Positions 1,883-62,192 of a stretch of DNA of 64,000 nt are shown piece by piece (within the stretch, counting starts at the first letter, position 1; each line of letters begins with the position of its first letter). The stretch is taken from the sequence record NZ_CP118109.1. The stretch is one strand, 5' to 3'. The translations under genes were made by a program, and so were the position numbers. Source of the DNA: a plasmid. The notes under the pieces are model-generated. The model saw only the letters and a list, made by a program, of their open reading frames with translations, did no database searches and was not told where the DNA came from.

Positions 1883-1911
1883 AATGTAATGCATTACATT
1901 TTTGATTATAC
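1883..1911 (-). promoter_or_regulatory. TATAAT -10 box followed by perfect dyad AATGTAATGCATTACATT upstream of endolysin
   Basis: On the minus strand, TATAAT (+1906-1911) then CAAAA then the palindrome (1883-1900), about 25 nt upstream of the start codon at 1858. Confidence 0.6.
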
Positions 1912-1940
1912 TACTTATTTATCATAAATTCGACATGTCA

Positions 1941-2393
1941 TTATACTTTTGTCTCAATATGAACTGCCTCAAGGTCGGTATAAATGGATCCATCAAAGAC
2001 GAGCGTGCCAACAATGATTCCTCTTATGAAATGCTGCTTAGTAAGTATTTCAATGGAGGTTCTATCTTGCCACTCTATAAATTTTCTCATATCTTTTAAA
2101 TTGCTAAATGTAAAAGGTATGCTTGCGATTACTCTTGAAGTTGTGAATGCACTCGAAGGACGCAAGTGCATATCAAACGAGCCAGTCGTATTTGAATATA
2201 TGTGATCATTAAGTTTCTCGATCTTTACAGAAGTAGCATAGCCTTTAATAATTTCATCCGTCATTGGATTATAAATAAGCGCCATGTTTTCTTCATGCCA
2301 ATGCTTTTCACTTTCAGGAACATTCAGCTTCATAGAGAATAGCCATTTATATACATCCAGATCTCTTTTTAGATAAGTGCTCATCAATTCCAT
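1941..2393 (-). CDS. hypothetical protein, MELM-N-terminus family member (MELMSTY)
   Basis: 150-aa ORF. AAGGAA RBS 8 nt upstream. Start codon overlaps stop of upstream gene (TAATG). Confidence 0.55.
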   Translation of the reverse strand: MELMSTYLKRDLDVYKWLFSMKLNVPESEKHWHEENMALIYNPMTDEIIKGYATSVKIEKLNDHIYSNTTGSFDMHLRPSSAFTTSRVIASIPFTFSNLKDMRKFIEWQDRTSIEILTKQHFIRGIIVGTLVFDGSIYTDLEAVHIETKV

Positions 2394-2737
2394 TATTCGT
2401 ATTCCTTACAATTGAATGTGAGCAGCCAGCTACCGTCCATTTGCCGGCCAAGCCTATGATAGACAATTTGATATGCCCGCTCTCCCCCGCCTATGAATTT
2501 CATCATCAAAACACGCATGCGATCTTCCCATCCATCCATAGATGGATCGTCTTTAAGTTCTTCCATGACCCACTCTTCAATAATGACTTTGCCCTGTGTT
2601 ACATCTGAATAGTCCGGATGGGGCCTAAACTCCTCTAATCGTGACACCGTCAGAGATACGGTTTGCTTCCTTTTATTTACTATCCAGAGCATAAAGCTCT
2701 CGACAGTTTGATCTAAATAGACTTCCATGAGATTCAC
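2393..2737 (-). CDS. hypothetical protein, MELM-family N-terminus (GTG start; M-N-L-M-E-V-Y)
   Basis: 114-aa ORF. GGAGGAG RBS 6 nt upstream of GTG at 2737. Confidence 0.5.
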   Translation of the reverse strand: MNLMEVYLDQTVESFMLWIVNKRKQTVSLTVSRLEEFRPHPDYSDVTQGKVIIEEWVMEELKDDPSMDGWEDRMRVLMMKFIGGGERAYQIVYHRLGRQMDGSWLLTFNCKEYE

Positions 2738-2755
2738 AGATGACTCCTCCTCTTA

Positions 2756-6233: not shown

Positions 6234-6530
6234 TTAATCTTTCGACTGGCCTTCCCCGATCACGTCGAGCGATGAAATAATTGGCCCAAATCTTCCATCT
6301 GCGCGCTTTACAACAGTAGTTGGAGCTACAGGCGATCCAATAACAACCATGCCTCCTACGCCGCTAGTTAGAATGATGGAGCGTGTTTTTCTTCCTTGTG
6401 TCATGTCCACATAGCGCCCATCGTCTTTAGCTTGAGTCATCATGCGACGTATTGGTGAGCTGTCTGGACGACTGATTGAAATGATCTTGCTTTCTTCAAT
6501 GAAATTTCCAAAACCGATATCGATGTACAT
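6234..6530 (-). CDS. RemA/DUF370-family DNA-binding protein homolog
   Basis: YIDIGFGNFI...ISRPDSSPIRRMM..AKDDGRYVDMTQGRKTRSIIL...VIGSPVAPTTVVKR matches the RemA (B. subtilis YlzA) consensus IGfGN...SaPiKR...lIDaTyGRrTR..I..d..vilS.vqPeT..R. Confidence 0.7.
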   Translation of the reverse strand: MYIDIGFGNFIEESKIISISRPDSSPIRRMMTQAKDDGRYVDMTQGRKTRSIILTSGVGGMVVIGSPVAPTTVVKRADGRFGPIISSLDVIGEGQSKD

Positions 6531-7412: not shown

Positions 7413-7463
7413 AAATGTAATGCGTTACATTTCAATTATAAACGAGATAATAGAAGGAATCAA
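7413..7463 (-). promoter_or_regulatory. sigma-A-type promoter TTGATT-N17-TATAAT with dyad AAATGTAACGCATTACATTT at +1
   Basis: On the minus strand, TTGATT (+7458-7463), 17-nt spacer, TATAAT (+7435-7440), palindrome 7413-7432, then GGAGGGGG RBS and ATG at 7397. Lies downstream of terminator 7465-7495. Confidence 0.7.
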
Positions 7464-7464
7464 G

Positions 7465-7495
7465 AGAAAAACGGAGATAAACTTAATTATCTCCG
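7465..7495 (-). terminator. rho-independent terminator (minus strand)
   Basis: 8-bp stem CGGAGATA/TATCTCCG with 8-nt loop, followed on the minus strand by UUUUUU (A-run 7466-7471 on +). Confidence 0.6.
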
Positions 7496-7731
7496 CTTAC
7501 TGCCTCTTCATCTTCGGTTGTGAGATCTGAATACATTTCTCGGTTGCATAAGACAATTTGATTAAAGAACTTACTGGGTACAATTAGATTTCCTGCAACA
7601 ACATAGTTATCTCGTTCAGTGATTTCTTTCAGTCTTAGTTCCAATGGAAAATGATTTAAGTTGTTCGAACAATCCAAGGTGGCAACTCCAGCAATCATAG
7701 TGTTCTCGTTAAAGTTCATCATCGTAGACAT
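7483..7731 (-). CDS. hypothetical protein
   Basis: 82-aa ORF; stop lies inside the terminator hairpin 7472-7495. Confidence 0.45.
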   Translation of the reverse strand: MSTMMNFNENTMIAGVATLDCSNNLNHFPLELRLKEITERDNYVVAGNLIVPSKFFNQIVLCNREMYSDLTTEDEEAVSGDN

Positions 7732-8498
7732 TTTATTTCTCCCTTTACACGTTTTTCGCGGAAGCTATCAGCGATTCGTTTTCGAATGCGATAAACAGAT
7801 CGATGATGGAGCCCGTTAATTCGAGCAATCTCTCTATCTGTCATGCCTTCATCGTAAGCCTTAAGAAGAATAAATCTTTCGCTATAACTCAGTTCTTTGA
7901 ACAAATCGCTACCTACTATGCCGTTCAACCACAGAATATTGTCCAGTTCAGTATACTCATCAACCTCCATATTTAGAGGCTCATAATAATACTTGTTTTC
8001 TATGATGCTGTCTATGGCTCGATCGTCATTTATGTAGCGGTCATCTTTGTAAGAGTACTGTTCTTCTTCCATACTCTCGAACATCTTATTATCCACAAAC
8101 CGCTTTACTCGGTATCTAAACACACTGTATACATATCGGCTAAAGCCGAATCCCATTTCTTTATAGGAGTGCGCACATTCTAACAATACGATTAGCAGCT
8201 CATGCTCAATCTCCGCTATATCATAGACGGAGAAAGTGTCTCGAATGTTCTTGATGACATCATAAACCTTCTCGATCGTTTCGCTTTTGCATCCTCCAGC
8301 TTTACAAAGATCATTGATGATTTCAGCTTCCCGAATGAAGCAGGATAAAAATCGCTTAGAATCATAGCTTTTAAAATCCATTTCTCCGTAGACGAGAAGC
8401 CTGCTGTATCTTCGTATCATCTTGTGATATCTTCTCATCAGAGGATTGGCATCGCCTTCTTCAAGATAACTATGAAGCGGATCGTGTTGCTTCTTCAT
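7719..8498 (-). CDS. sigma-70-family sigma factor-like protein (region 4 HTH at C-terminus)
   Basis: C-terminal SERFILLKAYDEGMTDREIARINGLHHRSVYRIRKRI resembles sigma region 4.2. Upstream F..Y....R block resembles region 2. 259 aa. Confidence 0.5.
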   Translation of the reverse strand: MKKQHDPLHSYLEEGDANPLMRRYHKMIRRYSRLLVYGEMDFKSYDSKRFLSCFIREAEIINDLCKAGGCKSETIEKVYDVIKNIRDTFSVYDIAEIEHELLIVLLECAHSYKEMGFGFSRYVYSVFRYRVKRFVDNKMFESMEEEQYSYKDDRYINDDRAIDSIIENKYYYEPLNMEVDEYTELDNILWLNGIVGSDLFKELSYSERFILLKAYDEGMTDREIARINGLHHRSVYRIRKRIADSFREKRVKGEIKCLR

Positions 8499-9067: not shown

Positions 9068-9322
9068 TTAGTAGTAAATAATGCGAATATCGAAGTCGTC
9101 GTGGATCAATACTAATGGCTTGATAATCTGAAGCACCTTTATATGACCCTCGGACTCCCTCATTGATAAAGGAAGTAACACTTTGTCGTATTGCTTACCC
9201 CTCATTGCTTCTTTCGTGAGACTATCGAATCCGATCACATCTATATGACTTAGCTTGGTTACTGTTTTAACACAGGAGGTTTCGCCCTCTATGATCATTA
9301 AGATGTCTGTATTTTTAGCCAT
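9068..9322 (-). CDS. hypothetical protein
   Basis: 84-aa ORF in operon context. Confidence 0.45.
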   Translation of the reverse strand: MAKNTDILMIIEGETSCVKTVTKLSHIDVIGFDSLTKEAMRGKQYDKVLLPLSMRESEGHIKVLQIIKPLVLIHDDFDIRIIYY

Positions 9323-9786
9323 TATTTATTCACCTTTATTGCCATCGTGGGAATGTGCATACATGTGATAATTAATGCTTCACCAATGAAGCGTCCTTCA
9401 CTATCGTATCGCTTGTTGTAATTAAGATCACGGCCAGTAAATTTTTCTGGATCAAGTCCGTATTCTTGCTTTACATACTTCAAGACTGTCGCCTCTAAGA
9501 TAGCGTCACGAGTAATATTCACCTGATCTTTCATTCGGAGCTCGTCCCATTCAGCTTCTTCCTCGTCAGCGATCTTATTCATAACAGCGCAGAACTCATC
9601 GAAGGTTAGTCTGCAGGTGCGGCCAAGTTCATCAAACTGCTCCGGCTCCAAGATAAAGTCAATGTTCGTGACTCCTTGTTCGGACTTTTTTGACATCTTT
9701 ACAAGTTTCTCATCTTCCTTGCTCTCCGTCTGCTGGCTTTCCACTGCCCAATTCCTTTTCGGACCGATCCTCATTCTCTTTGACAT
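9322..9786 (-). CDS. hypothetical acidic protein
   Basis: 154-aa ORF. AAAGGAG RBS. About 100-nt leader downstream of the promoter/palindrome at 9908-9936. Confidence 0.5.
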   Translation of the reverse strand: MSKRMRIGPKRNWAVESQQTESKEDEKLVKMSKKSEQGVTNIDFILEPEQFDELGRTCRLTFDEFCAVMNKIADEEEAEWDELRMKDQVNITRDAILEATVLKYVKQEYGLDPEKFTGRDLNYNKRYDSEGRFIGEALIITCMHIPTMAIKVNK

Positions 9787-9907: not shown

Positions 9908-9936
9908 AAAATGTAATGCGTTACGTTTTACATTAT
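9908..9936 (-). promoter_or_regulatory. extended -10 (TGTTATAAT) promoter with dyad AAAACGTAACGCATTACATTTT
   Basis: On the minus strand, TGTTATAAT directly followed by the palindrome (9908-9929). Lies immediately downstream of terminator 9953-9977 and upstream of gene 9322..9786. Confidence 0.6.
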
Positions 9937-9952
9937 AACACAATTTCTGCAT

Positions 9953-9980: not shown

Positions 9981-10874
9981 TTAGCCGATTAATTTTTCGA
10001 GATCGATAAGCCCATCGCCAGTATAAATGTCTCTGCCTGGAATACTTAAATCCTCACAGGATTCTTCTAGCTTTGCATGAACTTCTTCTAGCGTGGGCTC
10101 TACTCCTTGCCCTCTGCAGAAGCTAATATACAGTGCAATACATCCAGAGATAATAGGCGCTGCCATGCTGGTGCCGGATAGCTTCGCATAACCTCCATCT
10201 TTATACGTAGAGAAGATGTCTACACCAGGAGCCATGACTTCATTCTTGATGCCATAGTTACTGAATGGAGCTCTCTCTTTCCCTGGAGACATTGCAGATA
10301 CAGCGATTACTTCGTCATACATGGCTGGCCAACATACACCTGTATTTTCATTGCCTGTAGCAGCAACAACTATAATACCTGCGGCAGCCGCTTCTTTAAT
10401 GGCTTTGTGTAATTCCAGAGGCGGCTCGCTTGCACAGCCGAGACTCATGTTGATGATATCTACATTTTGCTCAATTGCCCACCGCAAGCCATTGATAATG
10501 GATTGAAAGTTGCCTCCTCCATTGTCTCCAAGGACTTTTGCGACATACAGCTCTGCATCAGGTGCGATCCCCACAACTCCTATTCCGTTGTCTGCCGCTC
10601 CAATGATGCCAGCAACATGTGTTCCATGCCCTTGTTTGTCTTCAGGTCCATACGGAGAGCGAGTGAAGTCTGCATAGACTTTCAAGTTCGGCTGCAGGTC
10701 TGGATGATCACGATCCACGCCCGTATCAAGGACAGCCACTTTGACTCCTTTACCGGTTGTGGTATTCCATACATCGGGTGCATTTACGGCTTCAATACCC
10801 CAATCAATAATGTCATCGCGCATCTCTGCGCCATGGGTTTGGACGATTTTATAGTCCGCCTGGGTGTCACTCAT
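9981..10874 (-). CDS. subtilisin-like serine protease (peptidase S8)
   Basis: Catalytic triad motifs VAVLDTGVD (Asp), HGTHVAGII (His), GTSMAAPIISG (Ser). 297 aa. AGGAGG RBS. Rho-independent terminator immediately downstream. Confidence 0.9.
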   Translation of the reverse strand: MSDTQADYKIVQTHGAEMRDDIIDWGIEAVNAPDVWNTTTGKGVKVAVLDTGVDRDHPDLQPNLKVYADFTRSPYGPEDKQGHGTHVAGIIGAADNGIGVVGIAPDAELYVAKVLGDNGGGNFQSIINGLRWAIEQNVDIINMSLGCASEPPLELHKAIKEAAAAGIIVVAATGNENTGVCWPAMYDEVIAVSAMSPGKERAPFSNYGIKNEVMAPGVDIFSTYKDGGYAKLSGTSMAAPIISGCIALYISFCRGQGVEPTLEEVHAKLEESCEDLSIPGRDIYTGDGLIDLEKLIG

Positions 10875-10914
10875 AGTTTCCTCCTATGTTTTCACCCTGT
10901 ATCCTATCTTCTAT

Positions 10915-10935
10915 AATTGTAACACGTTACATTTT
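10915..10935 (-). promoter_or_regulatory. dyad ATTGTAACACGTTACATTTT upstream of protease gene
   Basis: Palindrome overlaps the stop of 10934..11302 and lies 40-60 nt upstream of the protease start at 10874. No clear -35/-10 assigned. Confidence 0.4.
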
Positions 10936-11302
10936 ACTTTTCAGTAGTTTGTGAAAAATCTATAAAGAGGTCTTGTTCTTTGATTTGATCCATATAAGCC
11001 TGGAGTTCTTCATCGGTAACAGCTATATATACTCCACATGATCGGTCGGTGATACTGCATTTTCTTCTTTCTTCAACTCTTACTCTTCCGGACATTGTCA
11101 TTTCTGTTAGTCTCGGATGAACCAGATTGCGATCCCATCCTTTTAAGAGGTCGGCCTCGTACATTTTAGCTGCAATTTCGTTAGCTGTTAAGCCATCTTC
11201 ATATTGAAGAAGAAAGCTATGTATGATGTTCTGACGAGTTGCTACATCCTGTTTAACCAGATCGAAAGACTCTTTGCGGGTGCTGCTTGTTATTGTTGAC
11301 AT
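10934..11302 (-). CDS. putative winged-helix DNA-binding protein
   Basis: LTANEIAAKMY....G.....V.PRLTEMTMSGRV pattern resembles a wHTH. 122 aa. Weak. Confidence 0.35.
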   Translation of the reverse strand: MSTITSSTRKESFDLVKQDVATRQNIIHSFLLQYEDGLTANEIAAKMYEADLLKGWDRNLVHPRLTEMTMSGRVRVEERRKCSITDRSCGVYIAVTDEELQAYMDQIKEQDLFIDFSQTTEK

Positions 11303-14866: not shown

Positions 14867-15907
14867 TTATAGATCATCGAAGCCGTTATCGTCACTGGTT
14901 TTTCCGTAGTTACGAGACTTGGTTTCGAAGAAGTCAGATTTAGTAGCGTTCAATGCTTCATCAGAGAATGGCTTGATCCAAGGCATGCAGTTTACATCAA
15001 CGCCTTCGTAAGCTTTCTCCAGACCGAGCATCTTCAGACGGCGGTTGGCCATGTATTTGATATAGTCAGACAGCTCTTCAAGATCGATGCCGCGGACTTC
15101 TTTTAGTGTGTAGTAGGCCCAGTTAGTTTCCAGCTGTACAGCACGATCAATAGTGTCGTAGGCATACTGAATGTTCTCAGGCGTGTTCAGCTCAGGGAAG
15201 TCTGCAAGCAGCTGCTTGAATACCTCTGCGAAGAAGTAGCAGTGCTGATTTTCATCCCGTTGGATATATGAGATCATCTGGCTAGTGCCGATCATCTTTT
15301 GGTCTCGAGCCAGGTTATAGAAGAATGCAAATGTACTGTAGAAGAAGATACCTTCAAGGATCAGGTCAGCCACCATGGCCTTGAAGAAGGTTTGTGGCGT
15401 CTGCTCATCACGGAACTCTTGGTAGATTTCTGAGATAAATGTATTGCGCTCCAACAGAACCGGATCATGCTTCCAATATTCAAAGATTTCTCGCTGCTCC
15501 TGCTCAGAAACCAAGGACGACAGTACATAGGAGTAGGACTGATTATGAACAACTTCCTGCTGTCCGATAATGGCCGAGATTGCTTCTAGTGAAGAGTCCG
15601 TAAAGTAACGCTTTACATCGCCGACAAACATGGTCTGCATGGAATCCAAGACTGCCAAGAGGCCGATATTGATCTTGAATGTACGCTGCTCTTCTGCATC
15701 CAGAAGCGGGAATTGCTGAGCATCCTTACTCATTGGGATTTCATCAGCGATCCAATGATTCAATAGCAGAACCTTGTAGAGCTTGTACATATGCGGCATG
15801 CGGATATCGTTCCAGTTGAGAATCCCTGAGTTCTCGCCTTCGATAATCCGAGTTGATTTATTTGGTGCTTCTGTATTGAAGATTTTTTGCATTTTCATCT
15901 TATTCAC
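14867..15907 (-). CDS. nrdF: ribonucleotide reductase class Ib beta subunit (NrdF)
   Basis: 346 aa. Ferritin-like RNR small-subunit pattern (...EGIFFYSTFAFFY...ISYIQRDENQHCYFF). Gene order nrdI-nrdE-nrdF. Confidence 0.9.
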   Translation of the reverse strand: MNKMKMQKIFNTEAPNKSTRIIEGENSGILNWNDIRMPHMYKLYKVLLLNHWIADEIPMSKDAQQFPLLDAEEQRTFKINIGLLAVLDSMQTMFVGDVKRYFTDSSLEAISAIIGQQEVVHNQSYSYVLSSLVSEQEQREIFEYWKHDPVLLERNTFISEIYQEFRDEQTPQTFFKAMVADLILEGIFFYSTFAFFYNLARDQKMIGTSQMISYIQRDENQHCYFFAEVFKQLLADFPELNTPENIQYAYDTIDRAVQLETNWAYYTLKEVRGIDLEELSDYIKYMANRRLKMLGLEKAYEGVDVNCMPWIKPFSDEALNATKSDFFETKSRNYGKTSDDNGFDDL

Positions 15908-18756: not shown

Positions 18757-18776
18757 TTTTGTAACGCATTACATTT
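18757..18776 (-). promoter_or_regulatory. dyad TTTGTAACGCATTACATTTA immediately upstream of nrdI RBS
   Basis: Core TGTAACGCATTACA at 18760-18773, 17 nt upstream of the nrdI ATG at 18743. The -10 is less clear (GATAAA). Confidence 0.45.
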
Positions 18777-19279: not shown

Positions 19280-19759
19280 TTATTGGTATAGGTTTGCTAC
19301 AAAGATTCCGTCTTCATCAGTCGGACGAATGACATATCGCTTTGCTTCTGCCCCTTTTTCATTTATCCATTTCACAAGTCCAGCACTGAAGCATTTAAAA
19401 CCGCTACCTTTGTTGTTACCTTTTATAGCTCTAAGACGCATGCCGTCTTCTGATTTTCTTAGTACGATTTGACGAGGGCTGCCTCTGAATCCAATCTGAA
19501 CCTTGTCACCTTCTTTAATCCCTAGAAGTGCGCCAGCCTCTTTATTAATATGGATTCCTCCAGATTTTTGAAAACCAATGCTTGGATCTTTGACATTGAT
19601 ACTATTGGAATACCACTCAACTTCTTTGCTCGGAATATCGCTCATCTTGATACCATACCTTTCCGCTTCTTCGGGCGTCACTTGCCTAGTCTGCAATCCT
19701 TGCTGAAAAGGGAGTTTACCTGGATCGCTCGGATTTTTCCGCGGCCTGCCTCTTGTCAT
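19280..19759 (-). CDS. AbrB/MazE/SpoVT-family swapped-hairpin DNA-binding protein with N-terminal AT-hook-like GRPRK
   Basis: IHINKEAGALLGIKEGDKVQIGF resembles the AbrB/SpoVT core (IPKEIR..LGIKEGD.LEI). N-terminus MTRGRPRKNP. 159 aa. Confidence 0.5.
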   Translation of the reverse strand: MTRGRPRKNPSDPGKLPFQQGLQTRQVTPEEAERYGIKMSDIPSKEVEWYSNSINVKDPSIGFQKSGGIHINKEAGALLGIKEGDKVQIGFRGSPRQIVLRKSEDGMRLRAIKGNNKGSGFKCFSAGLVKWINEKGAEAKRYVIRPTDEDGIFVANLYQ

Positions 19760-19898: not shown

Positions 19899-19914
19899 AA
19901 AATGTAATACATTT
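19899..19914 (-). promoter_or_regulatory. degenerate/short dyad AAAATGTAATACATTT upstream of the zinc-ribbon/AbrB-like unit
   Basis: Shares AAATGTAAT / ACATTT arms but lacks the central GCG. Immediately upstream of the RBS of small gene 19765..19887. Confidence 0.3.
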
Positions 19915-19927
19915 CATTTAGGTAATA

Positions 19928-20957: not shown

Positions 20958-20982
20958 TTCTTCCCCTGCTTTCATTTAAACT

Positions 20983-26742: not shown

Positions 26743-27840
26743 TTAGGCCTTTTTCTCTTCCTCTGCTTTTTTATTCAACTCTTTATTAAAGAGAGGACAT
26801 TTATCTTTATCGCATACGCCGCTCAGTCTAGCAAAAGCTTCACAGCCGTATCGGTATTGTCCGTTATAAACTGAGTTCACAATAGTTTCGATATCTCTTC
26901 TGTTCAATCGAGGCATGCAGTTCTCTTCGCCCCATATGAGCATCCGCGCCATTGCTTCATCTCGTTCCATTCCTTGCTGCATATAGAAGCTGGTAAGTGC
27001 AGTCCCAGAGTTATTACGCTCGTCCACAGTTTCTTTAAATGTACGCTCAAGCATGGTCTGAATGCATGGCGGCAGAGTTTCTAGCTTGCGAATCTTCCCT
27101 TGGTATTCCTTTGCTTTTATATTCCGTTCGGTCCATTTTTGGATGTACCGATCAAGGGATAACTTAGCTCTATTTGATGTTACCAGTGGAGCAGGTTGAA
27201 GGAATCTCGGTTCTTTTGCCAGTTCCTTAATTTGTTCTAGTGTACAAGTGCGAAGCTCCTGCTGCGTTATGGGTATCTTATAATGACCACCCTTCTTATT
27301 GAAGGAGTTGACCATTCGAAACATGCGCTTATCATCGTATATTGCTGTATCCATTGTTCCAAACAGTGTGTACTTCGCGATATCAAGTGCAATCTCACGG
27401 TAGATTTGATTCAGGGATACGTGCGGATTTAGCCCAAGCACATGTCCGCTGACAGTCAAGTGAATCCCTTTGTGTCCCGAATAAAATACATTGATCTGAT
27501 CAGGCTCGATTGAAAGAATATGCTTAAGATAACGAAAGGCAATATGCACGTCATACTTTAATTTGGTGTAATCCTCTTCTGTCTCTAATGGCTTATCAAA
27601 GTCCAGATAAAGATCGCCCCATTTCAGAGCATCCCTTGCATTCAATACCCATTTCCCTTTTTCATTTTGAAAGAACTCAGGGTTAATGTATTGCATTACA
27701 GTCTCATAGACGCCTATGTTGTTGTAGTAATTCCGAAACTTGATGGTCTCGGAAGGATGCATATAATGCTTTCGTGTAAATGGAAACTTTTCCGAATTGG
27801 TGTCCGCTCCGCATTCCACAAAAAGCTGGAACTCATTCAC
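26743..27840 (-). CDS. DNA primase, archaeo-eukaryotic primase (AEP/Prim-Pol) superfamily with C-terminal Cys4 zinc element
   Basis: Motif I YLDFD, motif II SGHKGIHLTV, motif III RMVNSFNKK. C-terminal C...C...C..C (YGCEAFARLSGVCDKDKCPLF). 365 aa. Confidence 0.7.
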   Translation of the reverse strand: MNEFQLFVECGADTNSEKFPFTRKHYMHPSETIKFRNYYNNIGVYETVMQYINPEFFQNEKGKWVLNARDALKWGDLYLDFDKPLETEEDYTKLKYDVHIAFRYLKHILSIEPDQINVFYSGHKGIHLTVSGHVLGLNPHVSLNQIYREIALDIAKYTLFGTMDTAIYDDKRMFRMVNSFNKKGGHYKIPITQQELRTCTLEQIKELAKEPRFLQPAPLVTSNRAKLSLDRYIQKWTERNIKAKEYQGKIRKLETLPPCIQTMLERTFKETVDERNNSGTALTSFYMQQGMERDEAMARMLIWGEENCMPRLNRRDIETIVNSVYNGQYRYGCEAFARLSGVCDKDKCPLFNKELNKKAEEEKKA

Positions 27841-29789: not shown

Positions 29790-29840
29790 AAATGTAATGC
29801 GTTACATTTGTATGATAGCACGCTGAATTTTAGGAATCAA
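29790..29840 (-). promoter_or_regulatory. sigma-A-type promoter TTGATT-N17-TATCAT with dyad AAATGTAACGCATTACATTT at +1 (near-duplicate of the 7413-7463 promoter)
   Basis: On the minus strand, TTTTTCTCTTGATTCCT block (shared 17-mer with 7452-7468), 17-nt spacer, TATCAT (+29812-29817), palindrome 29790-29809. Lies downstream of terminator 29852-29883 and upstream of the SSAP gene. Confidence 0.7.
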
Positions 29841-31936: not shown

Positions 31937-33866
31937 AGCTCTGAAGTCTCCTCTCTAATTCAGACAGATGCTCATTCATCTGATTCATCCTTTTTGCCAC
32001 AGGATAAAGGCCGTTCATCTTCTGTTCGGCCACCGCAACCGTTACAGTGTACTCGACTTTCATATCTCCATTTTGTAACGCGTTACTTTTTAGTTTTATA
32101 TATCCATTTTCGAACACAAAATCCCCAGGACTATTGAGTTCTGCTCCATCTAAGGATATCACAAGCCTTGAAAAAGAGCTTTCTTCAACTCCCGGCATGA
32201 GCAGATAGCTGGTCTGTTCCATATTTATATTGAACGTTTTTACTGCAGAATACGTAATATTTTCCACTCCAGCTTCGTTTTCCCCCTGAAACCACGATTT
32301 TACGGCATCATCTTGATTTTTTGTATGATTTTCTATCATCATGTGATTCAGTCGGATGTCCAAAATCTGTTCTTGGTGATCAGATAATACTTTCTCTGAT
32401 TCACGTTGCCCCCGATATCTTGCATTACGCTTCATGATATTTGGGTAGTGGTAATTATCATCCCTGCGCTCCACGATCACTAGATCGTACCCGTCATCAG
32501 CCGTGGCAATCCATCTTAATTCATAGAATCTCGTGAGCGTTTGCCCTTGATCATCATTCATGACAGCTTTAAGGATAATCGTATACCTCTTGCGAGCAAC
32601 GTAATCACGCAGTGCTGCACGGATTCGGTATTCTCCACCAGCGGCAATCGTTACCGATTCTTGTATCTGAGTACGCCCATCCATGTAGATGAATGATTCT
32701 GCGCCGACCTCTACCTTAAATTCGACAAATTTCCAAGCCGAATCTCCGCTATTTTTGTAGGATAGAAAAATATCATCCTTATTGATCGGCAGCTCATTCA
32801 TCATAATCGAAGGATTAACTTGCACTTGGCCATCATTAGTACCAATCCATAATTCTATTCCTGGCTTTTTCTTTGGTGGCTCCAATACGGAAACGACAAC
32901 TGAATCTTCGCCTTGCGATCCCTCTACATTCTCAGCATAGAACTTGATCGTATACGTTCCAAGGCGATTAAAGCTGAGTATAGCCTGCCCTCCATTCTGG
33001 TTAAGAATATCTACTCCGGTCGGAATGTCCCACCTTCTGAGGCTGATTTCGGCTTCTGATTCGGCAATAGCATCCAGGGTCAGGCTCTCACCTTGTGACA
33101 AAGAGTGTGTACTTGGTTGAAGGATATCAACGAGTATAGGCGCAGGATCAGCGACATATATGGGCGCACTTATTGTGAAATTTTCACCTATTGTATTATT
33201 CACATTGTACTTTACGTGATATGCCCCTGCTTTGCTAAATCGAGCACTATTGGTTAAATCCGTGAACGAGATTGGTCTTACAATGGTTGAGTCTGCATCA
33301 TAGAACCAATCACAATCTCTAATGGCTGTATTGCTACCGGTTAAAGTGATCTTGAAGCTGGCCGTTTCTCCAATCCGGATGCGTGCTTCGGGAGGGTCAA
33401 TTGTTCCCGATAGCGGTATATGTGGTGGCGGCGGATCCTGATACGCTTCAATTCTGTACTCTACATAATCCTGTGCTTCAACATATCCGATGTATGGCTT
33501 TCGGTACCGGGCATCGCTTCGAACTTGGCTGATTGTTTTTCCATCAACCCAATTCCCTATTGCTACTTCCAGATTACTTGAATTAGGTCCGTACCGAACA
33601 ACTTCTTCTATCCAACTCTTTACCCCATTATCGTAAACATAAGCAATCCCTAAGAGACTACCAAATTTATTTGATGGCGAGGACAGCGGTGGAGCAAAGT
33701 TTACGATGCGGATCGTCAGGTTGTCTGCACTCTGAATCTCAGGCACAATGCTATAGCCTTCCGATGTGCTGATACCGGTATTGCCAAGCACATCAGCGAA
33801 GTCCATTTCGTAAGGAAATACATTATCATCATCAAAATAAAATAATACTTTTTCTATTGTTGGCAT
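31917..33866 (-). CDS. virion structural protein (Ig-like/beta-rich repeats)
   Basis: 649 aa; beta-rich, T/S/N-rich composition typical of tail or baseplate proteins. Confidence 0.5.
   Translation of the reverse strand: MPTIEKVLFYFDDDNVFPYEMDFADVLGNTGISTSEGYSIVPEIQSADNLTIRIVNFAPPLSSPSNKFGSLLGIAYVYDNGVKSWIEEVVRYGPNSSNLEVAIGNWVDGKTISQVRSDARYRKPYIGYVEAQDYVEYRIEAYQDPPPPHIPLSGTIDPPEARIRIGETASFKITLTGSNTAIRDCDWFYDADSTIVRPISFTDLTNSARFSKAGAYHVKYNVNNTIGENFTISAPIYVADPAPILVDILQPSTHSLSQGESLTLDAIAESEAEISLRRWDIPTGVDILNQNGGQAILSFNRLGTYTIKFYAENVEGSQGEDSVVVSVLEPPKKKPGIELWIGTNDGQVQVNPSIMMNELPINKDDIFLSYKNSGDSAWKFVEFKVEVGAESFIYMDGRTQIQESVTIAAGGEYRIRAALRDYVARKRYTIILKAVMNDDQGQTLTRFYELRWIATADDGYDLVIVERRDDNYHYPNIMKRNARYRGQRESEKVLSDHQEQILDIRLNHMMIENHTKNQDDAVKSWFQGENEAGVENITYSAVKTFNINMEQTSYLLMPGVEESSFSRLVISLDGAELNSPGDFVFENGYIKLKSNALQNGDMKVEYTVTVAVAEQKMNGLYPVAKRMNQMNEHLSELERRLQSYENAYK
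32074..32087 (-). promoter_or_regulatory. intragenic perfect dyad TGTAACGCGTTAC inside structural gene 31917..33866
   Basis: Palindrome core is the same as at the intergenic sites but the flanks are T-rich. About 140 nt upstream of the 30698..31936 start. Function uncertain. Confidence 0.25.
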
Positions 33867-47141: not shown

Positions 47142-47155
47142 TGTAACGCATTACA
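47142..47155 (-). promoter_or_regulatory. dyad TGTAACGCATTACA overlapping the stop codon of the 1723-aa gene, upstream of gene 46020..47078
   Basis: Core palindrome about 64 nt upstream of the start codon at 47078. A hairpin plus U-run (47095-47126) lies between the palindrome and the RBS. Confidence 0.4.
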
Positions 47156-58300: not shown

Positions 58301-60709
58301 AATACCTGATGAGTCGCCCGCAATTGGCTTGTAATCAAACTCAGCTTCGTAACTGGTATAGTCATAGTATTTCTTTGCCACAACGCCACTGAACCGGCTG
58401 AGGTTGTATGTGTCATAGACGTATCCGCTGCCGAGTCGCCAAGACAGCTCGGTACCGCTACCGATGAAGTCTCCTTTGTCTCCTCCAGAAACGAACAATC
58501 CTTTTACGTCACCTTCATCATTCACTTCCACATTCGCTTTCCAGTTGACGGCGTACTCCAAATCCTTTTTCGTGACTTGTCCTTCCACGGACATTTCAAC
58601 TTCATAGTCCTTGATTGTTTCAAGCTTGCGGTCTTCTTTGATCGTGAACTCAAACTTCTTCGCTGGATAGGCATCAACACTCACCTTAAACGAAGACTCG
58701 TTATAGGTCACATAGAGATCGCCTTTATACTGAACGCTGTATTGGAATGCGATTTCTGGATAGATCATAATGGAATGGCGCTTCTTTCCGCGAAGACGTG
58801 CTGCATATTGGAATGGTTGGATGCTGTTTTCTAGCTGAGGCTTTTTCACCAACAGGTCGTCTTGATCTCCGATCCCTGAGTGGAAAGCATAATTTGGATC
58901 TTCTTCCCCACTTGTCCGAGTATACATACTCGTCAGCATTCCTGGGTTCTCAATATAGTTCGGTTCTTTTTCTACATCCGTCCATTGTTCTGGAGAATCT
59001 TCTGTCGGAATATAAATCGATCCATCTACAGCCTCGGTACTGAACGCCTGAATCCGGTTCTCGGATACATCGACATAAATCTGTTGCTTCAGCTCCCCTG
59101 CTTTGCAGATGATTGTGGCTTTGCCATTCGTGATAGCTTCAAACACAAGTCTGTTTGCATCTTCGTCTACGATATTAAGGCAACTGTTTTGCTGAATGTC
59201 CCATGTAATCGACCGGCTGCGACCATCATCATTTACGATAGCGGGATAGATCGACTTTCGCTCTCCTGGTGCCATGAGTATATTAGTTTCGGCAAAGTGC
59301 AGGATCGGTTGCGTCTGCCCTACGATATGGATCGTGGCTTCAGCTTCGTTATCATAAACACTTGCTTTTAGTCGGACGACTCCCGAGCCATAACCACCAA
59401 GTACGATATCTTTTCCCTTGTTGTTCTCCAATTGAACAAATTCAGCGCCTTCTACAATGTTCCACTCAATTAAGTAGTCATTGTGATCCATGCCAGCCAG
59501 TGTATTTTGATATTGGGCAGAAAGAGATATCTTGTCCCCTTGCACGATCGTTGCCTCTTCAGGCTGAACATGGAAGCGATACAAATGTTTATCTCGTATC
59601 GGCAGCTTTATGGTTGCCTCCACCACTTCGCTTGTCTTGCTAACAAGACGAACTTCCATCGTTAAAATACCTGAAGTACTAGGGATGATCATAAAAGTTC
59701 TCGTATCTAATTGGAGACTTACTTCACCGCCTTGCACATCATACTCACAGGTGGAAGTCTCGAAGATATCTCCATTCGTATACTCTGGCATCAAGTGGAT
59801 TTGAAAAGGCTGACCTACATAAAAGTTTTTACTATCCAAGGAAGTATGGATCACTGCTTTTGGCTTCTCTACACGGATCGGTGTTTCAGCGATGAATGTT
59901 CCTGCATAGTTAAAACGAATGTTGGTTTCACCAATACTCATGCCTTCAATCCAAATCTTATCTGATTCAACAGCAGAAACTCTTGCGATATTTCGGTTAT
60001 CAATGATGCCCTCAATAAGATCTGCCCTAACACCTAGAACACCTTCAACATCAAGAAAAATCGGAACAGGAATAGCCTCCCGATGAGTTACAACGATCTC
60101 ATTTACATTCACGCTTCCTATGACATTCTCAATCAGAGAAACATCAAAACCAAAGACTTCAATACCTTCCTCAGCAAGTTCCATAATTACATTCTCTTTA
60201 TTGCTGATAATTTCAAGGGATCGAATATCATAGCGAAGAGGGAACTCTATTTCACTATTGCGCTCAAGCAGCTGCTTAAGCTCAGTGCGGTTTAAAATCT
60301 TTGCTGTCTCTTTGGTGCCGTGGATGCTTGTGTCGATCTGCTCTGCTGTTATCCATTTTGTTTCGGTTGTTATCGGTACAGCTGCTCTGGATTCGATCCA
60401 AGCATAAACGGAATCAATGCCATCCTCATTTATTACGATTGATACATTAGGGTCTAGTGAGATCGCCGTATATCCTTGGATGACACTTCCCTCTTCGAGG
60501 TCAATAACTACGCTATCTAATTCGATATGAGCTTTGCTATCATAGCTTGTGTGCTGTTCATTAAGCACTCCGCGCCCCTCATATAACTTATCGTTATACC
60601 TCTCTCCATTTGGCTTCTCTACGTCAGCATAGACGGCGAATTGAAATGGGTGCTCCCACGTTGGGATAATCTCTGCTTTGATTTTATAATCGAAATTGAT
60701 TATGGCCAT
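52346..60709 (-). CDS. giant virion protein (2787 aa) with PA14 domain and N-terminal Ig-like repeats; candidate adhesin/receptor-binding fibre
   Basis: PA14 core GFAINWKGSIYAPVSGTYTFYSTSDDGFRLWIDKKLIIDKWV at about nt 53830-53990 (minus). AAGGAG RBS. Start codon overlaps stop of upstream gene (TAATG). Confidence 0.7.
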   Translation of the reverse strand: MAIINFDYKIKAEIIPTWEHPFQFAVYADVEKPNGERYNDKLYEGRGVLNEQHTSYDSKAHIELDSVVIDLEEGSVIQGYTAISLDPNVSIVINEDGIDSVYAWIESRAAVPITTETKWITAEQIDTSIHGTKETAKILNRTELKQLLERNSEIEFPLRYDIRSLEIISNKENVIMELAEEGIEVFGFDVSLIENVIGSVNVNEIVVTHREAIPVPIFLDVEGVLGVRADLIEGIIDNRNIARVSAVESDKIWIEGMSIGETNIRFNYAGTFIAETPIRVEKPKAVIHTSLDSKNFYVGQPFQIHLMPEYTNGDIFETSTCEYDVQGGEVSLQLDTRTFMIIPSTSGILTMEVRLVSKTSEVVEATIKLPIRDKHLYRFHVQPEEATIVQGDKISLSAQYQNTLAGMDHNDYLIEWNIVEGAEFVQLENNKGKDIVLGGYGSGVVRLKASVYDNEAEATIHIVGQTQPILHFAETNILMAPGERKSIYPAIVNDDGRSRSITWDIQQNSCLNIVDEDANRLVFEAITNGKATIICKAGELKQQIYVDVSENRIQAFSTEAVDGSIYIPTEDSPEQWTDVEKEPNYIENPGMLTSMYTRTSGEEDPNYAFHSGIGDQDDLLVKKPQLENSIQPFQYAARLRGKKRHSIMIYPEIAFQYSVQYKGDLYVTYNESSFKVSVDAYPAKKFEFTIKEDRKLETIKDYEVEMSVEGQVTKKDLEYAVNWKANVEVNDEGDVKGLFVSGGDKGDFIGSGTELSWRLGSGYVYDTYNLSRFSGVVAKKYYDYTSYEAEFDYKPIAGDSSGIADDDLIGLIFKARDKRNFYMLLIESHERARNSNRTGDNLEGFNIYTGTPEQWNARSVRGASYQTESEWRLYTQSMGWKTQHRRIYKVTDGVMSRVNVNDLGGGNGWDFNVMQSMMVRSMGKKVELHIRHSLSGDYAKIFEFNTDWEEGSFGMCNISQAVQFHGIRVREWNQIEGRIPETGYDKYTGIGSKTISSSGREYVKNQVVSKLSSPSQKYEVTEVAGELTDSSAGSITASVTGAIVVKSNNPPNAGEPITQKFTKSGQIRITPDNIDLNTAAEVYTNAQEFFKAELAKFKSDHPEMSASSVVPTFTLVKPAADDAEKDFTQERLLMWETEPEIVTTEIDYEHNVFAYEGWVAGRPLTDFVGGNWATYTLTFHDNSGTVNEQYDAWKWQNSGAVDIHHDPSDVLMLKTTEWYKGIFPADILNEGIVNSEEDSFVDIPPNHEHYIEPYLNTPMPGIYDNVHYLLYKEPIGKQTFTWMYWESQPGITTRNSGLPINQLTGKPIIKTDRQNDRVVVKCDEDPRYIPYTTGKEIGYGKVNGKRPFFGDSAGRANMVGVPTNTVFIPENMVNITGPYIEVSDERVSYNIDAGGKTVTFSSDFKDAYVWYTDWYTSWHEDERGFHADLNTTTTISDPISINPDDQEDYDDNVSIEGVEVISNNPFVSVWPTQAEGSSSGLLGTYYRYPQEIENVLEKFVVGGSFQIKEQVFVIEEAVAPVNTPGLPATETFIPGSAPVRGTIQGATESEVATVYVPAGKPILKIASNFMIDTGNKYPDLLVTAPNGEQFGVKYMNGTWSATGTTASDFLSCRQYTHSGDNGHAEVMTFTLPIEGTWIISVFNQGNAQTTYMVTTNIGTEVRKVLSLSYVPDPDSVSVKVNGTSITAFAMDRKDVIITAPIVNEDVIEVNYSAGGIKIKELPMQTDFPMYDVPPYKVLSVRKNDVEIPESTTNGYYIDGQTFKIRGSYVTPGVIRIRYGVGEIDNTFDLSNEPQLSPEVYLNGAKLDETKYSISGRILTVDKELLMPKDWVHLQSYRVAKRFDPQKENYLGNVKMSRIDPFINFNWGTQSPFTESLEPAGFRMMAVIPDQIKFNLNVEMEISYPSSEVIDTSNFTGVWNKFDENIGSDVGNWHGPPEAGYDKVTNLANQSYRSGWYNPEHVDMTDYDFEFLVQEINSGDNDMYGAIFRFSPATKNFYSFEWDADGMDVRGMAIYRNICTNPSQYGTAQLTYNKVKLAHLPEPWAYGGNQTNKIRVRVVGQSIQVYTNDVLKFDIVDNAPDALIAGAWGPVTRSQPNTYFWNFSTSKILKETIRKPMSAEKTKSLTDSLRTEEMVVNDQRMIEFFSSELNSFLSAHGFSRSDVSLQYFIKNDTSDYKTHFTTGGIVTSSDDAKVSATVITRPASTPEQPAWLDYREINRGHLPPDTSVDVYSPDQPEPYIDPIQPTDEGTPNDGFAINWKGSIYAPVSGTYTFYSTSDDGFRLWIDKKLIIDKWVLQSAMTHVGSIDLQGGKWYDFNANYFENEGTASVKLEWSHPATDRTMISPDFFTPRLGYAVNARVKEATPMPWSPMIHNGYYYFKDKEHYLYAKKTRHVMTPVDHQLLIQPRPQQGAPMIIRDNEGNILRKTAFYEEVFNEDGLLIDIQQTLTYKEELTGNGYGKYYLTYKGIDPDSLVVKLNGVTISADKYVFDAERSSIQFMNNIGNRDIMNFEYSLMYSYFVDYNHDPNNDVAKIVLHSNYDPDKMKDMEIIYEGDAFSPFYRAKEIALNPLLTHNHKGFLYLTNKILDTPKSVEINVSPKTLSSDGLGKVLVTGKVLDKYNNPIQNKNVDVYRDGELIYSGPTNRAGEIYVYDKPVPRAEMISAYQIICEDLNNQTLLNFYVPNMKDRYFLEVKTSKAAIQAGQDDKATVYITLRNENWENVAGERIKIVCRDTKGDITTSEMTTNVYGQAEWTISALNEQQGNITVTASYSMEGETASNFIYLKVIGA

Positions 60710-62151
60710 TAAAACTTCTCCTTCGCTAGGTCTAGTCTGAATGTGTAATCATCCCAGACTTTGATATCTGAATCCCAAATGTTTGGAAGATACCCGATCC
60801 CCGTCAGGTCTCTGCTGATCGTATCCCAGTATCCTTCATCCCAATTGAATTTCCCCCACATCACAGGCGCTACTTCATTGATGTAATTCACCCAATTGAT
60901 TAGCTTATCTGTTGCTTGCCCATCCTCACCGAACATCATTTTGTACAGCTCTTCGTCTTGTTTATCGTACAACTGATGCTTGAAGACATCTTTGATGATG
61001 GAAACGGTATGCTCTTTTCCTTCACGAAACGCCTGAACCATGATGTTTCCGAAACGATCTACTGCGTACATGTTGGACTCTATCTTCTGGCCATCCACAC
61101 GGATCGTGCGGTGGTCTAGCCCGCTGCCCTTGATGTACAAGTTCTTCGTATCGTTTTTCCACACGAATCTCCGGATTAAGCCAAGCTCGCGACCGAGTGC
61201 ATGGGTTAATCCCAACTCGCTGTTGTTTGCCGGGTAACGGAAAGCATCTTTGATGCGTTCACGATACTCTGCATTCCGCTCAAGTGTCAGACGTTTCACG
61301 CCGACTAAAAGCCCGAACTCATCAAAGGCATTCCAGATTAAATGAGGTGCCGGTGTTGATCGGAAGCCCTGCCGGTTATCAATATTCTCGACTACGCCTA
61401 GAATGGTTTCATATCGACGAATCGAGTACATGACTCGAGACTCGTAATCAATAATGACGCCCTTCTGCTCCATGTTATAAAAGAACTCTTTTAGTGAGCT
61501 TAAGATGGGAACCGGTTTACGAAGGTCAGCATCTTCTTGATCATAAATCGTTAGACTGTCTATAGATGAAATCTTAGGGATTGGATAGACATAAACCCAG
61601 TCCATCATATTCGGATCAAGCGTGTCGATGAATCGCTGGCGGCGAATATCTTTAAGATCACCCAAGCCTCTTTCAAATTGCATCCCGAAGTAGTTTAAAA
61701 ATCTCTGGCCAAGACTGAACTTCTTCCCGCGTAGCGTTGTCCATGTAGGAAATTCATCTGCCATGTACTGCGTATATTCTGAATAGAAATATTCGTTTAT
61801 GAATAGTCCAATAATAAGATTCCGTCCGCTGAGTGTCGCCTGGATGATTCGCTTGTCTTGATCGCATGTCGTTTCGACTAAGCGCCAATTGCTGATCTGG
61901 TCGTGAAAGCAGATAACTGAATGTGCTGCATCTGTATCACTCATTCGCTTTGAATAAGGAATCGTGATTCGAACCTGCTGATCGGCATTGGTGACCATTT
62001 TAAATTGCAGGGGAGTCTTCTCATAATCTGCATAGGCAATTTCTTCAGCAAACACATCGTGACTTTGAATGCCTTCTACCTGTTGCAGCTCTCCCGTAAT
62101 GGGCTGATCGCTTTCGAAAACTATATCATTGATCTCAAACCTATATTCCAT
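60709..62151 (-). CDS. structural protein (baseplate-like), first gene after promoter 62166-62192
   Basis: 480 aa. AGGAGG RBS immediately downstream of palindrome. Confidence 0.5.
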   Translation of the reverse strand: MEYRFEINDIVFESDQPITGELQQVEGIQSHDVFAEEIAYADYEKTPLQFKMVTNADQQVRITIPYSKRMSDTDAAHSVICFHDQISNWRLVETTCDQDKRIIQATLSGRNLIIGLFINEYFYSEYTQYMADEFPTWTTLRGKKFSLGQRFLNYFGMQFERGLGDLKDIRRQRFIDTLDPNMMDWVYVYPIPKISSIDSLTIYDQEDADLRKPVPILSSLKEFFYNMEQKGVIIDYESRVMYSIRRYETILGVVENIDNRQGFRSTPAPHLIWNAFDEFGLLVGVKRLTLERNAEYRERIKDAFRYPANNSELGLTHALGRELGLIRRFVWKNDTKNLYIKGSGLDHRTIRVDGQKIESNMYAVDRFGNIMVQAFREGKEHTVSIIKDVFKHQLYDKQDEELYKMMFGEDGQATDKLINWVNYINEVAPVMWGKFNWDEGYWDTISRDLTGIGYLPNIWDSDIKVWDDYTFRLDLAKEKF

Positions 62152-62165
62152 ACCGACCCTCCTTT

Positions 62166-62192
62166 CAATGTAATGCGTTACATTATACCATT
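62166..62192 (-). promoter_or_regulatory. TATAAT -10 box overlapping dyad CAATGTAACGCATTACATTG upstream of structural operon
   Basis: On the minus strand, GGTATAATGTAACGCATTACATTG then GAAAGGAGG RBS and ATG at 62151. Lies downstream of terminator hairpin 62217-62247. Confidence 0.6.

Follow-up and report, generated by a model that had tools for sequence, protein, structure and literature searches.

Bacteriophage P1 is a large prophage maintained as a plasmid, in which one operator recurs at many separate promoters, scattered operons stand under the single repressor C1, and the operator is conserved among related phage-plasmids. The P1 operators are asymmetric 17-mers, and the late genes of P1 are controlled indirectly, via Lpa. 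In SPbeta, a large prophage of Bacillus subtilis, a repeated element of ~15 bp (SPBRE) is present in many intergenic promoter regions; it was found in silico and was later established as the site of the master repressor MrpR (YopR) by chromatin affinity precipitation-sequencing (ChAP-seq) and electrophoretic mobility shift assay (EMSA) (PMC10516654). Bacillus phage 0305phi8-36 carries a 21-bp promoter motif in short intergenic spaces ahead of genes, which was proposed as the target of a phage RNA polymerase (PMC2147016, Hardies et al. 2007). Here we report on a 14-bp dyad repeated at the promoters of a 64,000-nucleotide stretch of sequence record NZ_CP118109.1 (the whole stretch is hereafter named the window), which is part of a ~215-kb Paenibacillus urinalis plasmid carrying phage structural genes. 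We consider it probable that this dyad is the double-stranded DNA operator of one dimeric repressor, likely encoded by the element itself, that silences the phage-plasmid.

Such a system would be functionally akin to P1 C1, SPbeta MrpR/SPBRE and the L5 stoperators, and it differs from them in sequence, in the candidate proteins and in an unusually complete coverage of promoters. The sites are dispersed, as in P1 (11 in the 64 kb of the window, and 20 and 24 in two relatives). In contrast to the P1 operators, the dyad is palindromic and occupies structural and lysis promoters itself, and no homology is expected between C1 and the proteins seen here. With regard to SPbeta, the present dyad stands where SPBRE stood when it had been recognised in silico only. 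However, MrpR has a tyrosine-recombinase fold, whereas the candidates described below are winged helix-turn-helix (wHTH) or MerR-type proteins, and SPBRE occupies ~10 early or regulatory promoters of an integrated prophage, compared with at least 20 sites per genome, including those of virion and lysis operons, in this plasmid-prophage. Homology with SPBRE/MrpR was rejected and the comparison is kept as an analogy only. The lineage of 0305phi8-36 is related (~30% identity in virion proteins) and also has a repeated phage-specific motif, but this motif consists of a variable, covarying 4-5-bp stem with a GTTCGCAC loop, then a T-rich tract and TGTA; its sequence is not a palindrome, and it was not found in the window. 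In the right arm of 0305phi8-36 (L093-L095, record 144278-212548, minus strand; L-numbers label the stretches of DNA compared, i.e. relatives, L225 and host chromosomes), 18 copies of this hairpin motif were observed, all with the GTTCGCAC loop invariant. These copies evidently correspond to the 21-bp motif described by Hardies et al. 2007; the covarying stem and the fixed loop are not stressed in the accessible part of that report.

The phage-plasmid and its repeated dyad

The product of the open reading frame (ORF) 470-778 has a match of 100% identity in a P. urinalis protein with a plasmid annotation, on a contig of 214,846 bp, and no close DNA match was found by megablast of the window against phage and plasmid collections. 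The virion and Pol III proteins show ~30-40% identity to those of Moorella phage MTATph1 and 0305phi8-36. The same DNA is present in a read-archive assembly (L225), which continues 7.7 kb past window coordinate 1. This extension holds a DnaA-N-domain/HTH initiator, then an origin-like stretch with at least three DnaA boxes (TTATCCACA) and five ACGTTAAAAATTTTAACGT iterons (L225:13287-14770 and 16400-17706) and, further on, csrA-like and flagellin genes. The relatives in PLSDB are complete plasmids, annotated as such, that encode ParM as well as phage capsid, terminase and tail proteins, from P. rhizovicinus (228.8 kb), Bacillus licheniformis, B. paralicheniformis and B. halotolerans (200-212 kb), and B. 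thuringiensis and B. cereus (140-260 kb). A more distant member of the group, pBtic235, is a mitomycin-inducible jumbo plasmid-prophage (PMC9700832). Because of the exact match to a plasmid protein, the adjoining origin-like region and the plasmid relatives with ParM and phage genes, the window was assigned to a phage-plasmid that is silent in the sequenced isolate. The idea of a global lysogeny switch, put forward in an earlier note on this DNA, gains weight from the element being a plasmid-borne prophage. Phage-plasmids of 140-260 kb are common in sequenced isolates of these seven species (P. urinalis and the six of the PLSDB relatives), and we know of no account of how they stay silent.

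The pattern TGTAAYGCRTTACA, with up to two mismatches, gave 14 matches in the window against 0.63 expected, and none of 100 shuffles reached 14. Three 2-mismatch matches (15604, 51515 and 55504) are probably due to chance. A weight matrix built from 52 unique sites of the window and its relatives, used with a threshold of at least 18 bits for all site counts, retained 11 sites in the window and none in shuffles. Nine of these 11 are intergenic, although the non-coding share of the window is only 3.4% (manual gene list) to 8% (automatic). The ten cores listed in that note were all present at their coordinates, with the degenerate copy better placed at 19903-19916; one intragenic copy with one mismatch (27687-27700) was absent from its list. 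It had also described two perfectly symmetric versions. That of the endolysin site was confirmed, whereas the intragenic one reads AGTAACGCGTTACA on the coding strand and has one mismatch.

All the genes of the window are on the minus strand, and therefore promoters and dyads are read on that strand. The extended consensus is aATGTAAYGCRTTACATt, with the flanking A/T present in ~60% of the 104 half-sites, and it takes the form ATGTAAYGCRTTACAT at most sites. The centre is G-C in 40 of the 52 sites and C-G in none; where it is asymmetric, it occurs in both orientations relative to transcription. The 14-mer was not found in any paper of the literature searched, in which the hairpin motif of 0305phi8-36, unrelated to the dyad, is the sole motif described for this lineage, and a 30-mer dyad query against phages by BLAST returned only noise. 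The LexA (Cheo) box of Bacillota has a GAAC-N4-GTTC core. Identity with this box was discarded, since the dyad shares its 5-4-5 geometry but has the arms TGTAA/TTACA. The sites of the window and the genes behind them are as follows (RBS, ribosome-binding site).

62169..62182, minus strand: dyad TGTAACGCATTACA, preceded by a hairpin and by TATAAT (62190-62195), with gaps of 7 nt from the TATAAT and of 4 nt to the RBS that follows; the operon encodes a 480-aa virion protein (60709-62151), then proteins of 2787 aa and 1723 aa. Orthologous copies in L013, L018 and pBL141-2, degenerate in L014-L016.
47142..47155, minus strand: dyad TGTAATGCGTTACA, overlapping the stop of the 1723-aa gene. TAGAAT precedes it (47156-47161); after it come TGATATGATAAT, a terminator-like hairpin (47125-47099) and the RBS of 46020-47078. 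Here, as in the orthologous copies of L071, L063 and pBL141-2, the dyad is directly followed by an extended -10.
32074..32087, minus strand: intragenic dyad AGTAACGCGTTACA with one mismatch, within gene 31917-33866.
29793..29806, minus strand: dyad TGTAACGCATTACA, 5 nt downstream of TATCAT (29812-29817), with -35 TTGATT (29835-29840) and a terminator upstream (29885-29856); a leader of ~75 nt precedes the gene starting near 29716. Orthologue in L012.
27687..27700, minus strand: intragenic dyad TGTAATGCAATACA with one mismatch, within gene 26743-27840. A perfect copy lies at the same place in the L082 orthologue, which reflects either an internal promoter/operator or coding constraint.
19903..19916, minus strand: degenerate dyad TGAAATGTATTACA (23.8 bits), 10 nt after CATAAT; small ORFs and a 159-aa ORF (19280-19759) lie downstream.
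18760..18773, minus strand: dyad TGTAATGCGTTACA, directly 5' of the RBS of nrdI-nrdE-nrdF (18402-18737, 16112-18445, 14867-15907), encoding ribonucleotide reductase (RNR); no good -10 was found at the usual distance. Orthologous sites 5' of RNR in L082 and P. rhizovicinus.
10918..10931, minus strand: dyad TGTAACGTGTTACA at the S8 protease promoter (gene 9981-10874), upstream of the predicted start; its right arm doubles as the extended -10 TGTTACAAT (hexamer 10921-10916).
9912..9925, minus strand: dyad CGTAACGCATTACA, preceded by a terminator (9979-9958) and, at a distance of 6 nt, by the extended -10 TGTTATAAT (hexamer 9932-9937); the operon comprises 9322-9786, 9068-9322, RusA, a sigma factor (7719-8498) and 7483-7731.
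7416..7429, minus strand: dyad TGTAACGCATTACA, 5 nt after TATAAT (7435-7440), with -35 TTGATT (7458-7463) and terminator 7498-7469; the operon encodes a Cas4-like exonuclease, a RemA-like protein, Pol III alpha and two small ORFs. Orthologous in 8 of 8 relatives (L217-L224).
1885..1898, minus strand: perfectly symmetric dyad TGTAATGCATTACA, 6 nt after TATAAT (1905-1910), 5' of the endolysin gene (863-1858). Orthologue at L219:15518.

Promoter overlap and conservation

The usual layout on the coding strand is a -10 hexamer, 5-7 nt ending in AAA, the dyad, TTT and the RBS. A gap of 5-7 nt separates the dyad from a preceding TATAAT or TATCAT at 1885, 7416, 9912, 29793 and 62169, the same five sites for which a good -10 just before the dyad had previously been described, and 7416 and 29793 have the full promoter TTGATT-17-TATAAT/TATCAT. 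A -10-like hexamer was present 0-12 nt upstream of 38 of the 52 unique sites, with a mode of 5-7 nt; the gap between -10 and dyad ranges from 0 to 11 nt among sites. When a -10 on either side was accepted, 8 of the 11 window sites passed this looser test (baseline 0.20). A generic sigma-70 promoter scan of the window gave match counts equal to those of shuffles, and therefore only the fixed -10-to-dyad geometry is informative. In L225, a perfect dyad spans the -35/spacer of a TTGTAA-17-TATACT promoter.

Terminator hairpins, formerly assigned to the upstream side of eight sites, are clear at only four or five (7416, 9912 and 29793 by scan, 62169 by eye), and the hairpin at 47142 is located downstream of the dyad. 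The units served do span functional classes, as the earlier note had it (endolysin, exonuclease/RemA-like/Pol III, sigma-factor operon, S8 protease, NrdIEF and structural operons), with the exception of the single-strand annealing protein (SSAP), since the gene so labelled after the 7416 site encodes the Cas4-like exonuclease.

The dyad was detected at orthologous promoters in IMG/VR relatives (45-78% protein identity, 35-51% GC), in which the flanking intergenic DNA has diverged. The conserved dyad promoters are those of the Cas4-like exonuclease/RemA-like/Pol III operon (8 of 8 loci), the sigma-factor operon, the S8 protease, the endolysin, RNR, the 480-aa virion protein and a gene of the baseplate region. 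Plasmid pBL141-2 of B. licheniformis (~40% protein identity) also has the dyad at orthologous structural promoters. The complete P. rhizovicinus plasmid contains 20 sites, 16 of them non-coding, and pBL141-2 contains 24, with 18 non-coding (this count and the comparisons with pBL141-2 come from ~191 kb, ~93% of the plasmid), so that the non-coding share of sites is 75-82% in the window and these two relatives. In both relatives the sites are distributed over the two divergently transcribed arms of the genome. The composite TATAAT-N1-8-dyad has 35 matches in all IMG/VR, ~30 of them in contigs of this clade, and motif enrichment was not found in any other IMG/VR phage group. The dyad was not found in the 50 kb of MTATph1 examined, and the 119 kb of 0305phi8-36 examined contained no dyad regulon, only one 2-mismatch copy.

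Position and conservation both bear on the sign of the regulation. A phage activator, possibly together with the sigma factor encoded at 7719..8498, could turn on middle and late transcription through the dyad, or the dyad could be a mark of temporal handover. This sigma factor (minus strand; Pfam HTH_23 at the C-terminus, PHROG 351, with a sigma-70 family annotation in pBL141-2) is conserved in all relatives, and weakly in MTATph1. The -35 is poor or absent at many dyad promoters, such deep conservation suits an essential transcription factor better than an immunity repressor, and 0305phi8-36 has a phage-specific promoter motif of its own (PMC2147016). However, several near-consensus sigma-A promoters (TTGATT-17-TATAAT, TGnTATAAT) should fire unaided, a site at +1 to +20, or atop the -10, is in the position of a repressor, the sigma gene itself is behind a dyad promoter (9912), and the position of the dyad relative to the -10 is not fixed. 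We therefore regard positive control as fairly unlikely.

Two further features were noticed around these promoters. Between the protease promoter and its RBS (window 10875-10917, minus strand), the leader GGATACAGGGTGAAAAC..AGGAGG is conserved in the L217-L224 orthologues while other intergenic DNA of the relatives has diverged; it is possibly a regulatory leader. The dyad promoter TTGTAA-17-TATACT at L225:11880-11990 (~1.5 kb past window coordinate 1), found also at L219:18925-19020, precedes a predicted transcript of ~100 nt that ends in a bidirectional terminator. This transcript has a conserved ACCUUUUUUCCUGCUCC stretch resembling an anti-Shine-Dalgarno sequence, and it is a candidate small regulatory RNA at the place where the genome arms converge.

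Operator, hairpin or replication site

One important question is whether the dyad acts as DNA or as RNA. In the latter case, each transcript would start with an 8-bp A/U-rich hairpin, which would protect it from 5' exonucleases or be bound by a translational regulator or antiterminator. Hairpins at the 5' terminus stabilise mRNAs in Bacillus, and at the TATAAT-N5-7 promoters the predicted start falls in the AAA just 5' of the dyad, with the RBS 4-30 nt further on. The variation among sites does not follow this expectation. Fifteen departures from the TGTAA/TTACA arms were observed in the 52 sites, all of them one-sided and none compensatory. The inner Y/R pair (positions 6/9) is T..A in 27 sites, C..A in 10 (a mismatch in RNA, here at the closing pair), C..G in 8 and T..G in 7, and therefore as expected from two independently varying half-sites. 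The predicted 5' hairpins are weak (-0.6 to -3.9 kcal/mol, z-scores from +0.5 to -2.0) and no better than those of shuffles, and no Rfam family matched the dyad. Both loop orientations occur and, at promoters with a gap of 0-1 nt from the -10, the left arm would be outside the transcript. At the protease promoter, where the dyad is upstream of the start, its right arm and a conserved GT centre together make up the extended -10 GTGTTACAAT, both in the window and in five relatives (L217, L218, L219, L221 and L224); at other promoters the dyad occupies the -35/spacer, and host genomes use the same sequence as a promoter-spacer element. The hairpin alternative raised in the earlier note finds no support, given the absence of compensatory changes, the weak folding and the variable position relative to the -10, and we judge an RNA function to be extremely improbable.

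Since a fixed sequence sits at differing positions on promoter cores, the dyad is better explained as a protein-binding operator, and at the level of sequence it behaves as a DNA operator and not as an RNA hairpin. The proposal of an operator for a dimeric DNA-binding protein, overlapping the transcription start, appears to be the best reading of the promoter overlap and of this DNA-level signature.

A DNA site of another kind was also considered. The dyad might serve replication or chromosome handling, e.g. as a Ter-like site for a homologue of the replication terminator protein (RTP, of the PadR clan) encoded beside the initiator in relatives. RTP-family proteins (PF02334, E ~1e-44 to 1e-48; also PF03551 PadR) are encoded in P. 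rhizovicinus, pBL141-2, L221, L222 and a 197-kb contig. The operator consensus of the PadR family is ATGT/ACAT with 8-10 nt between (PMC3506622), and the extended dyad ATGTAAYGCRTTACAT fits ATGT-N8-ACAT, as a pattern match only. On the other hand, the RTP gene was not seen in the window, in the 7.7 kb beyond it (L225) or in L219, promoter cores beside RBSs are an unexpected place for fork barriers, and the polar arrest that is typical of Ter would not be expected of a symmetric site. Furthermore, the RTP-like gene of P. rhizovicinus is flanked by TGAACAT/ATGTTCA repeats, which we take to resemble the RTP sites of B. subtilis, and not by the dyad. A replication role is for these reasons very unlikely. 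Nor do we favour the RTP homologue as a PadR-type binder of the dyad, because its own gene is flanked by other repeats and is not universal in the relatives. The P. rhizovicinus homologue (PF02334) lies beside the initiator at L257:29893-30600 (plasmid 179893-180600), and the region between its gene and a divergent YolD-like gene contains, together with the TGAACAT/ATGTTCA repeats, a LexA-box-like AGAACATATGTTTG. RTP homologues are present on Paenibacillus and Brevibacillus chromosomes as well.

Candidate binding proteins and a possible link to host operons

Three ORFs of the window had been suggested as regulators, and none of them was retained. The RemA-like ORF 6234..6530 is a true member of its family and is conserved in all dyad-bearing relatives, so that its presence correlates with the dyad. 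However, the RemA ring binds repetitive DNA that is long and of low conservation (PMC8481266), and the DNA bound by the family is non-palindromic. The ORF 10934..11302, labelled wHTH, matched no HTH family or PDB profile and is present in only three related genomes; it belongs to PHROG 1123 (unknown function), occurs also in Paenibacillus sp. TCA20, a homologue search gave no protein other than itself, and its single-sequence AlphaFold model (pLDDT 40) was unusable. The ORF 19280..19759, described as AbrB-like, had no family match and is not conserved. The sigma factor 7719-8498 is disfavoured as the binder, because a monomeric sigma would leave the palindrome downstream of the -10 unexplained. 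Inspection by eye of the proteins behind newly found dyad promoters gave no obvious regulator.

A conserved regulatory pair was located outside the window, in the other genome arm, by comparison of the P. rhizovicinus plasmid with pBL141-2. The first gene encodes a MerR-type protein of 70-90 aa (PF00376; 52-65% identity), and in a pattern search of IMG/VR all seven matches fell in contigs of this clade. The second, directly downstream, encodes a protein of 172-218 aa, in which an N-terminal wHTH is combined with a coiled coil and a small domain at the C-terminus. Synteny of the MerR-like gene, dyad(s) and wHTH-coiled-coil gene extends over plasmids of Paenibacillus, B. licheniformis and B. cereus as well as IMG/VR relatives. 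Between the two genes, one or two dyads or variants are present in pBL141-2, L266-L268, L269 and B. cereus pG9842_140, and in L269 the dyad overlaps an extended -10; those of P. rhizovicinus and L264 are degenerate.

The recognition helix of the wHTH protein is SEATVHRA in 7 of 8 aligned clade sequences (among which L268 and pBL141-2 are the same protein), while overall identity falls to 29%. In L269, from the same sample as the closest relative of the window, the helix is STATVSRA. The fraction of TGTAAC half-sites is 0.72 in the STATVSRA lineage, 0.45 in the window and 0-0.30 in 9 of 10 other genome groups, including those of higher GC; the exception is one contig with two sites only, all TGTAAC, whose helix was not seen. 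The B. cereus plasmid has the helix SEATAHRA and local dyads TGTAGTAC(A/G)TTACA. These correlations between helix and half-site variants come from single lineages and are suggestive. In 0305phi8-36, the homologue ORF230 has the helix SNATVHRA, and the only dyad-like site in the 119 kb of this phage abuts the ORF230 gene. This is compatible with a local autoregulatory site having become a genome-wide regulon in the plasmid clade. Because dyad(s) precede its gene in relatives and the recognition helix SEATVHRA/STATVSRA is conserved, the wHTH-coiled-coil protein is our first-choice candidate binder; the MerR-like protein encoded immediately upstream is the second.

The palindrome also invites comparison with host operators. 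LacI/GalR operators and the catabolite-responsive elements (cre, TGTAAGCGCTTACA-like) of CcpA are 14-16-bp palindromes, and the TGTAA/TTACA arms fit their TGNAA/TTNCA pattern. A central CG step is characteristic of LacI/GalR operators, and the cre consensus is WTGNAANCGNWNNCW. Identity of the dyad with a cre/CcpA site was discarded, its centre never being C-G. A scan of host genomes for ATGTAAYGCRTTACAT would be expected to return ~555 matches by chance, and therefore only conserved promoter architecture counts as evidence. Such an architecture, TTGACA-TGTAATGCATTACA-N5-TA(c/t)A(g/a)T with a 19-bp spacer (L105, L117, L127, L131, L143, L145, L164, L204), was found, among the matches listed, in at least seven Paenibacillus matches, at least six Listeria species, Carnobacterium and others. 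These sites lie upstream of genes for 6-phospho-beta-glucosidases of glycoside hydrolase families GH4/GH1 or beside a gene for a BglG-family antiterminator, and LacI-family genes adjoin the host dyads in L105, L131, L143, L118, L175, L187 and L178.

A LacI-family or CcpA-like repressor of the host could accordingly bind the dyad, silence the phage-plasmid and couple its induction to sugar availability. The operator-like occurrence of an identical 14-mer in host beta-glucoside/sugar promoters, often beside a LacI-family gene, agrees with this, and so does a motif that stays unchanged in phage-plasmids from hosts of 35-51% GC, as for a conserved host factor. Nevertheless, a local sugar regulator of low copy number would be titrated by the 20 or more operators that each plasmid copy brings, the centre of the dyad is GC instead of the canonical CG of LacI/CcpA, the lack of enrichment in other IMG/VR phage groups and the high chance expectation of the genome scan count against it, and the dyads that flank the conserved phage regulator pair suggest a self-encoded system. 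We consider control by a host factor rather unlikely. No LacI-like gene was found in the element by tblastn of clade DNA or by a very narrow pattern search of IMG/VR. The wHTH candidate matches the RpiR/TrmB-type HTH models of Pfam and not the LacI model, although its helix S-x-ATV-S/H-R-A resembles, in sequence, the S-x-ATVSRV helix of the LacI family. It is quite unlikely, in our view, that the phage operator is deliberately identical to the host sugar operator, so that a host LacI-type repressor silences the prophage or the phage regulator binds the sugar-operon promoters of the host as well and rewires its carbon metabolism during carriage. If this were true, a common 14-bp site would connect a family of 200-kb phage-plasmids with a conserved sugar regulon of their hosts and, in the version with a host repressor, carbohydrate availability would trigger induction. 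The identity of the dyad with the operator of host sugar operons is, in any case, a testable tie to host physiology.

We infer from the palindrome and its placement that a dimeric, sequence-specific protein, most likely encoded by the element, binds the two TGTAAY half-sites and acts as a repressor. The bound dyad would cover ~+1 to +20 at most promoters, the -10 at the protease promoter and the -35/spacer at some others, and RNA polymerase would be occluded at these host sigma-A-type promoters because the dyad overlaps their core. This single protein would silence the lytic programme during plasmid carriage (replication, nucleotide metabolism, phage sigma factor, protease, virion and lysis), and could suffice for it, since the same operator is present on nearly every transcription unit. 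Loss of binding would make all units fire at once. The release may run via an SOS-controlled antirepressor, by analogy with pBtic235, in which a LexA operator precedes an Ant-like gene.

Several points weigh against this repressor. The choice of repression over activation is drawn from the geometry of the sites, and the transcription starts at the dyad promoters are predicted. The operator is kept across genera, though immunity operators usually diverge fast, and this would also fit a host factor or an essential activator. All the candidate binders are encoded outside the window, and the presence of the wHTH-coiled-coil gene in the P. urinalis plasmid is deduced from its nearest relative, L269, alone. 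Finally, 0305phi8-36 has the ORF230 homologue without a dyad regulon, and the P. rhizovicinus operators 5' of the wHTH gene are degenerate.

Conservation of the operator across genera, unusual for immunity, predicts cross-immunity or cross-regulation between distant members of the group. One conserved operator on nearly all promoters, together with two candidate proteins, provides a direct experimental handle on what may be the master switch of this family, and the list of sites already predicts the regulon and its transcription units.

Other features were observed in the window and in the relatives. A Tad2-like (anti-Thoeris) domain protein (Pfam PF11195, E 8e-17) is encoded at 20652-20975 on the minus strand of the window. 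The peptide quorum-sensing genes agrB and agrD are present on the P. rhizovicinus plasmid, as is a gene for ParM/StbA partition (L256, 133872-134524; L255:41453-42664), and pBL141-2 encodes a MazF-type toxin and an LXG toxin, the latter accompanied by its immunity gene. Many unrelated-looking small proteins share the N-terminal motif MEL(M/I)xxY, namely those of the minus-strand window ORFs starting at 2393, 2737, 12452, 12839, 14839, 11839 and 12083, and others in L217, L221, L223, L224, L247 and L250 (e.g. MELMSTYL, MELMKKYY, MELMRRYR, MELMQPYQ, MELLSNYQ and MELIEAYL). This motif may tag the proteins for targeting or processing, with the S8 protease perhaps involved, or could indicate an expanded family of paralogues.

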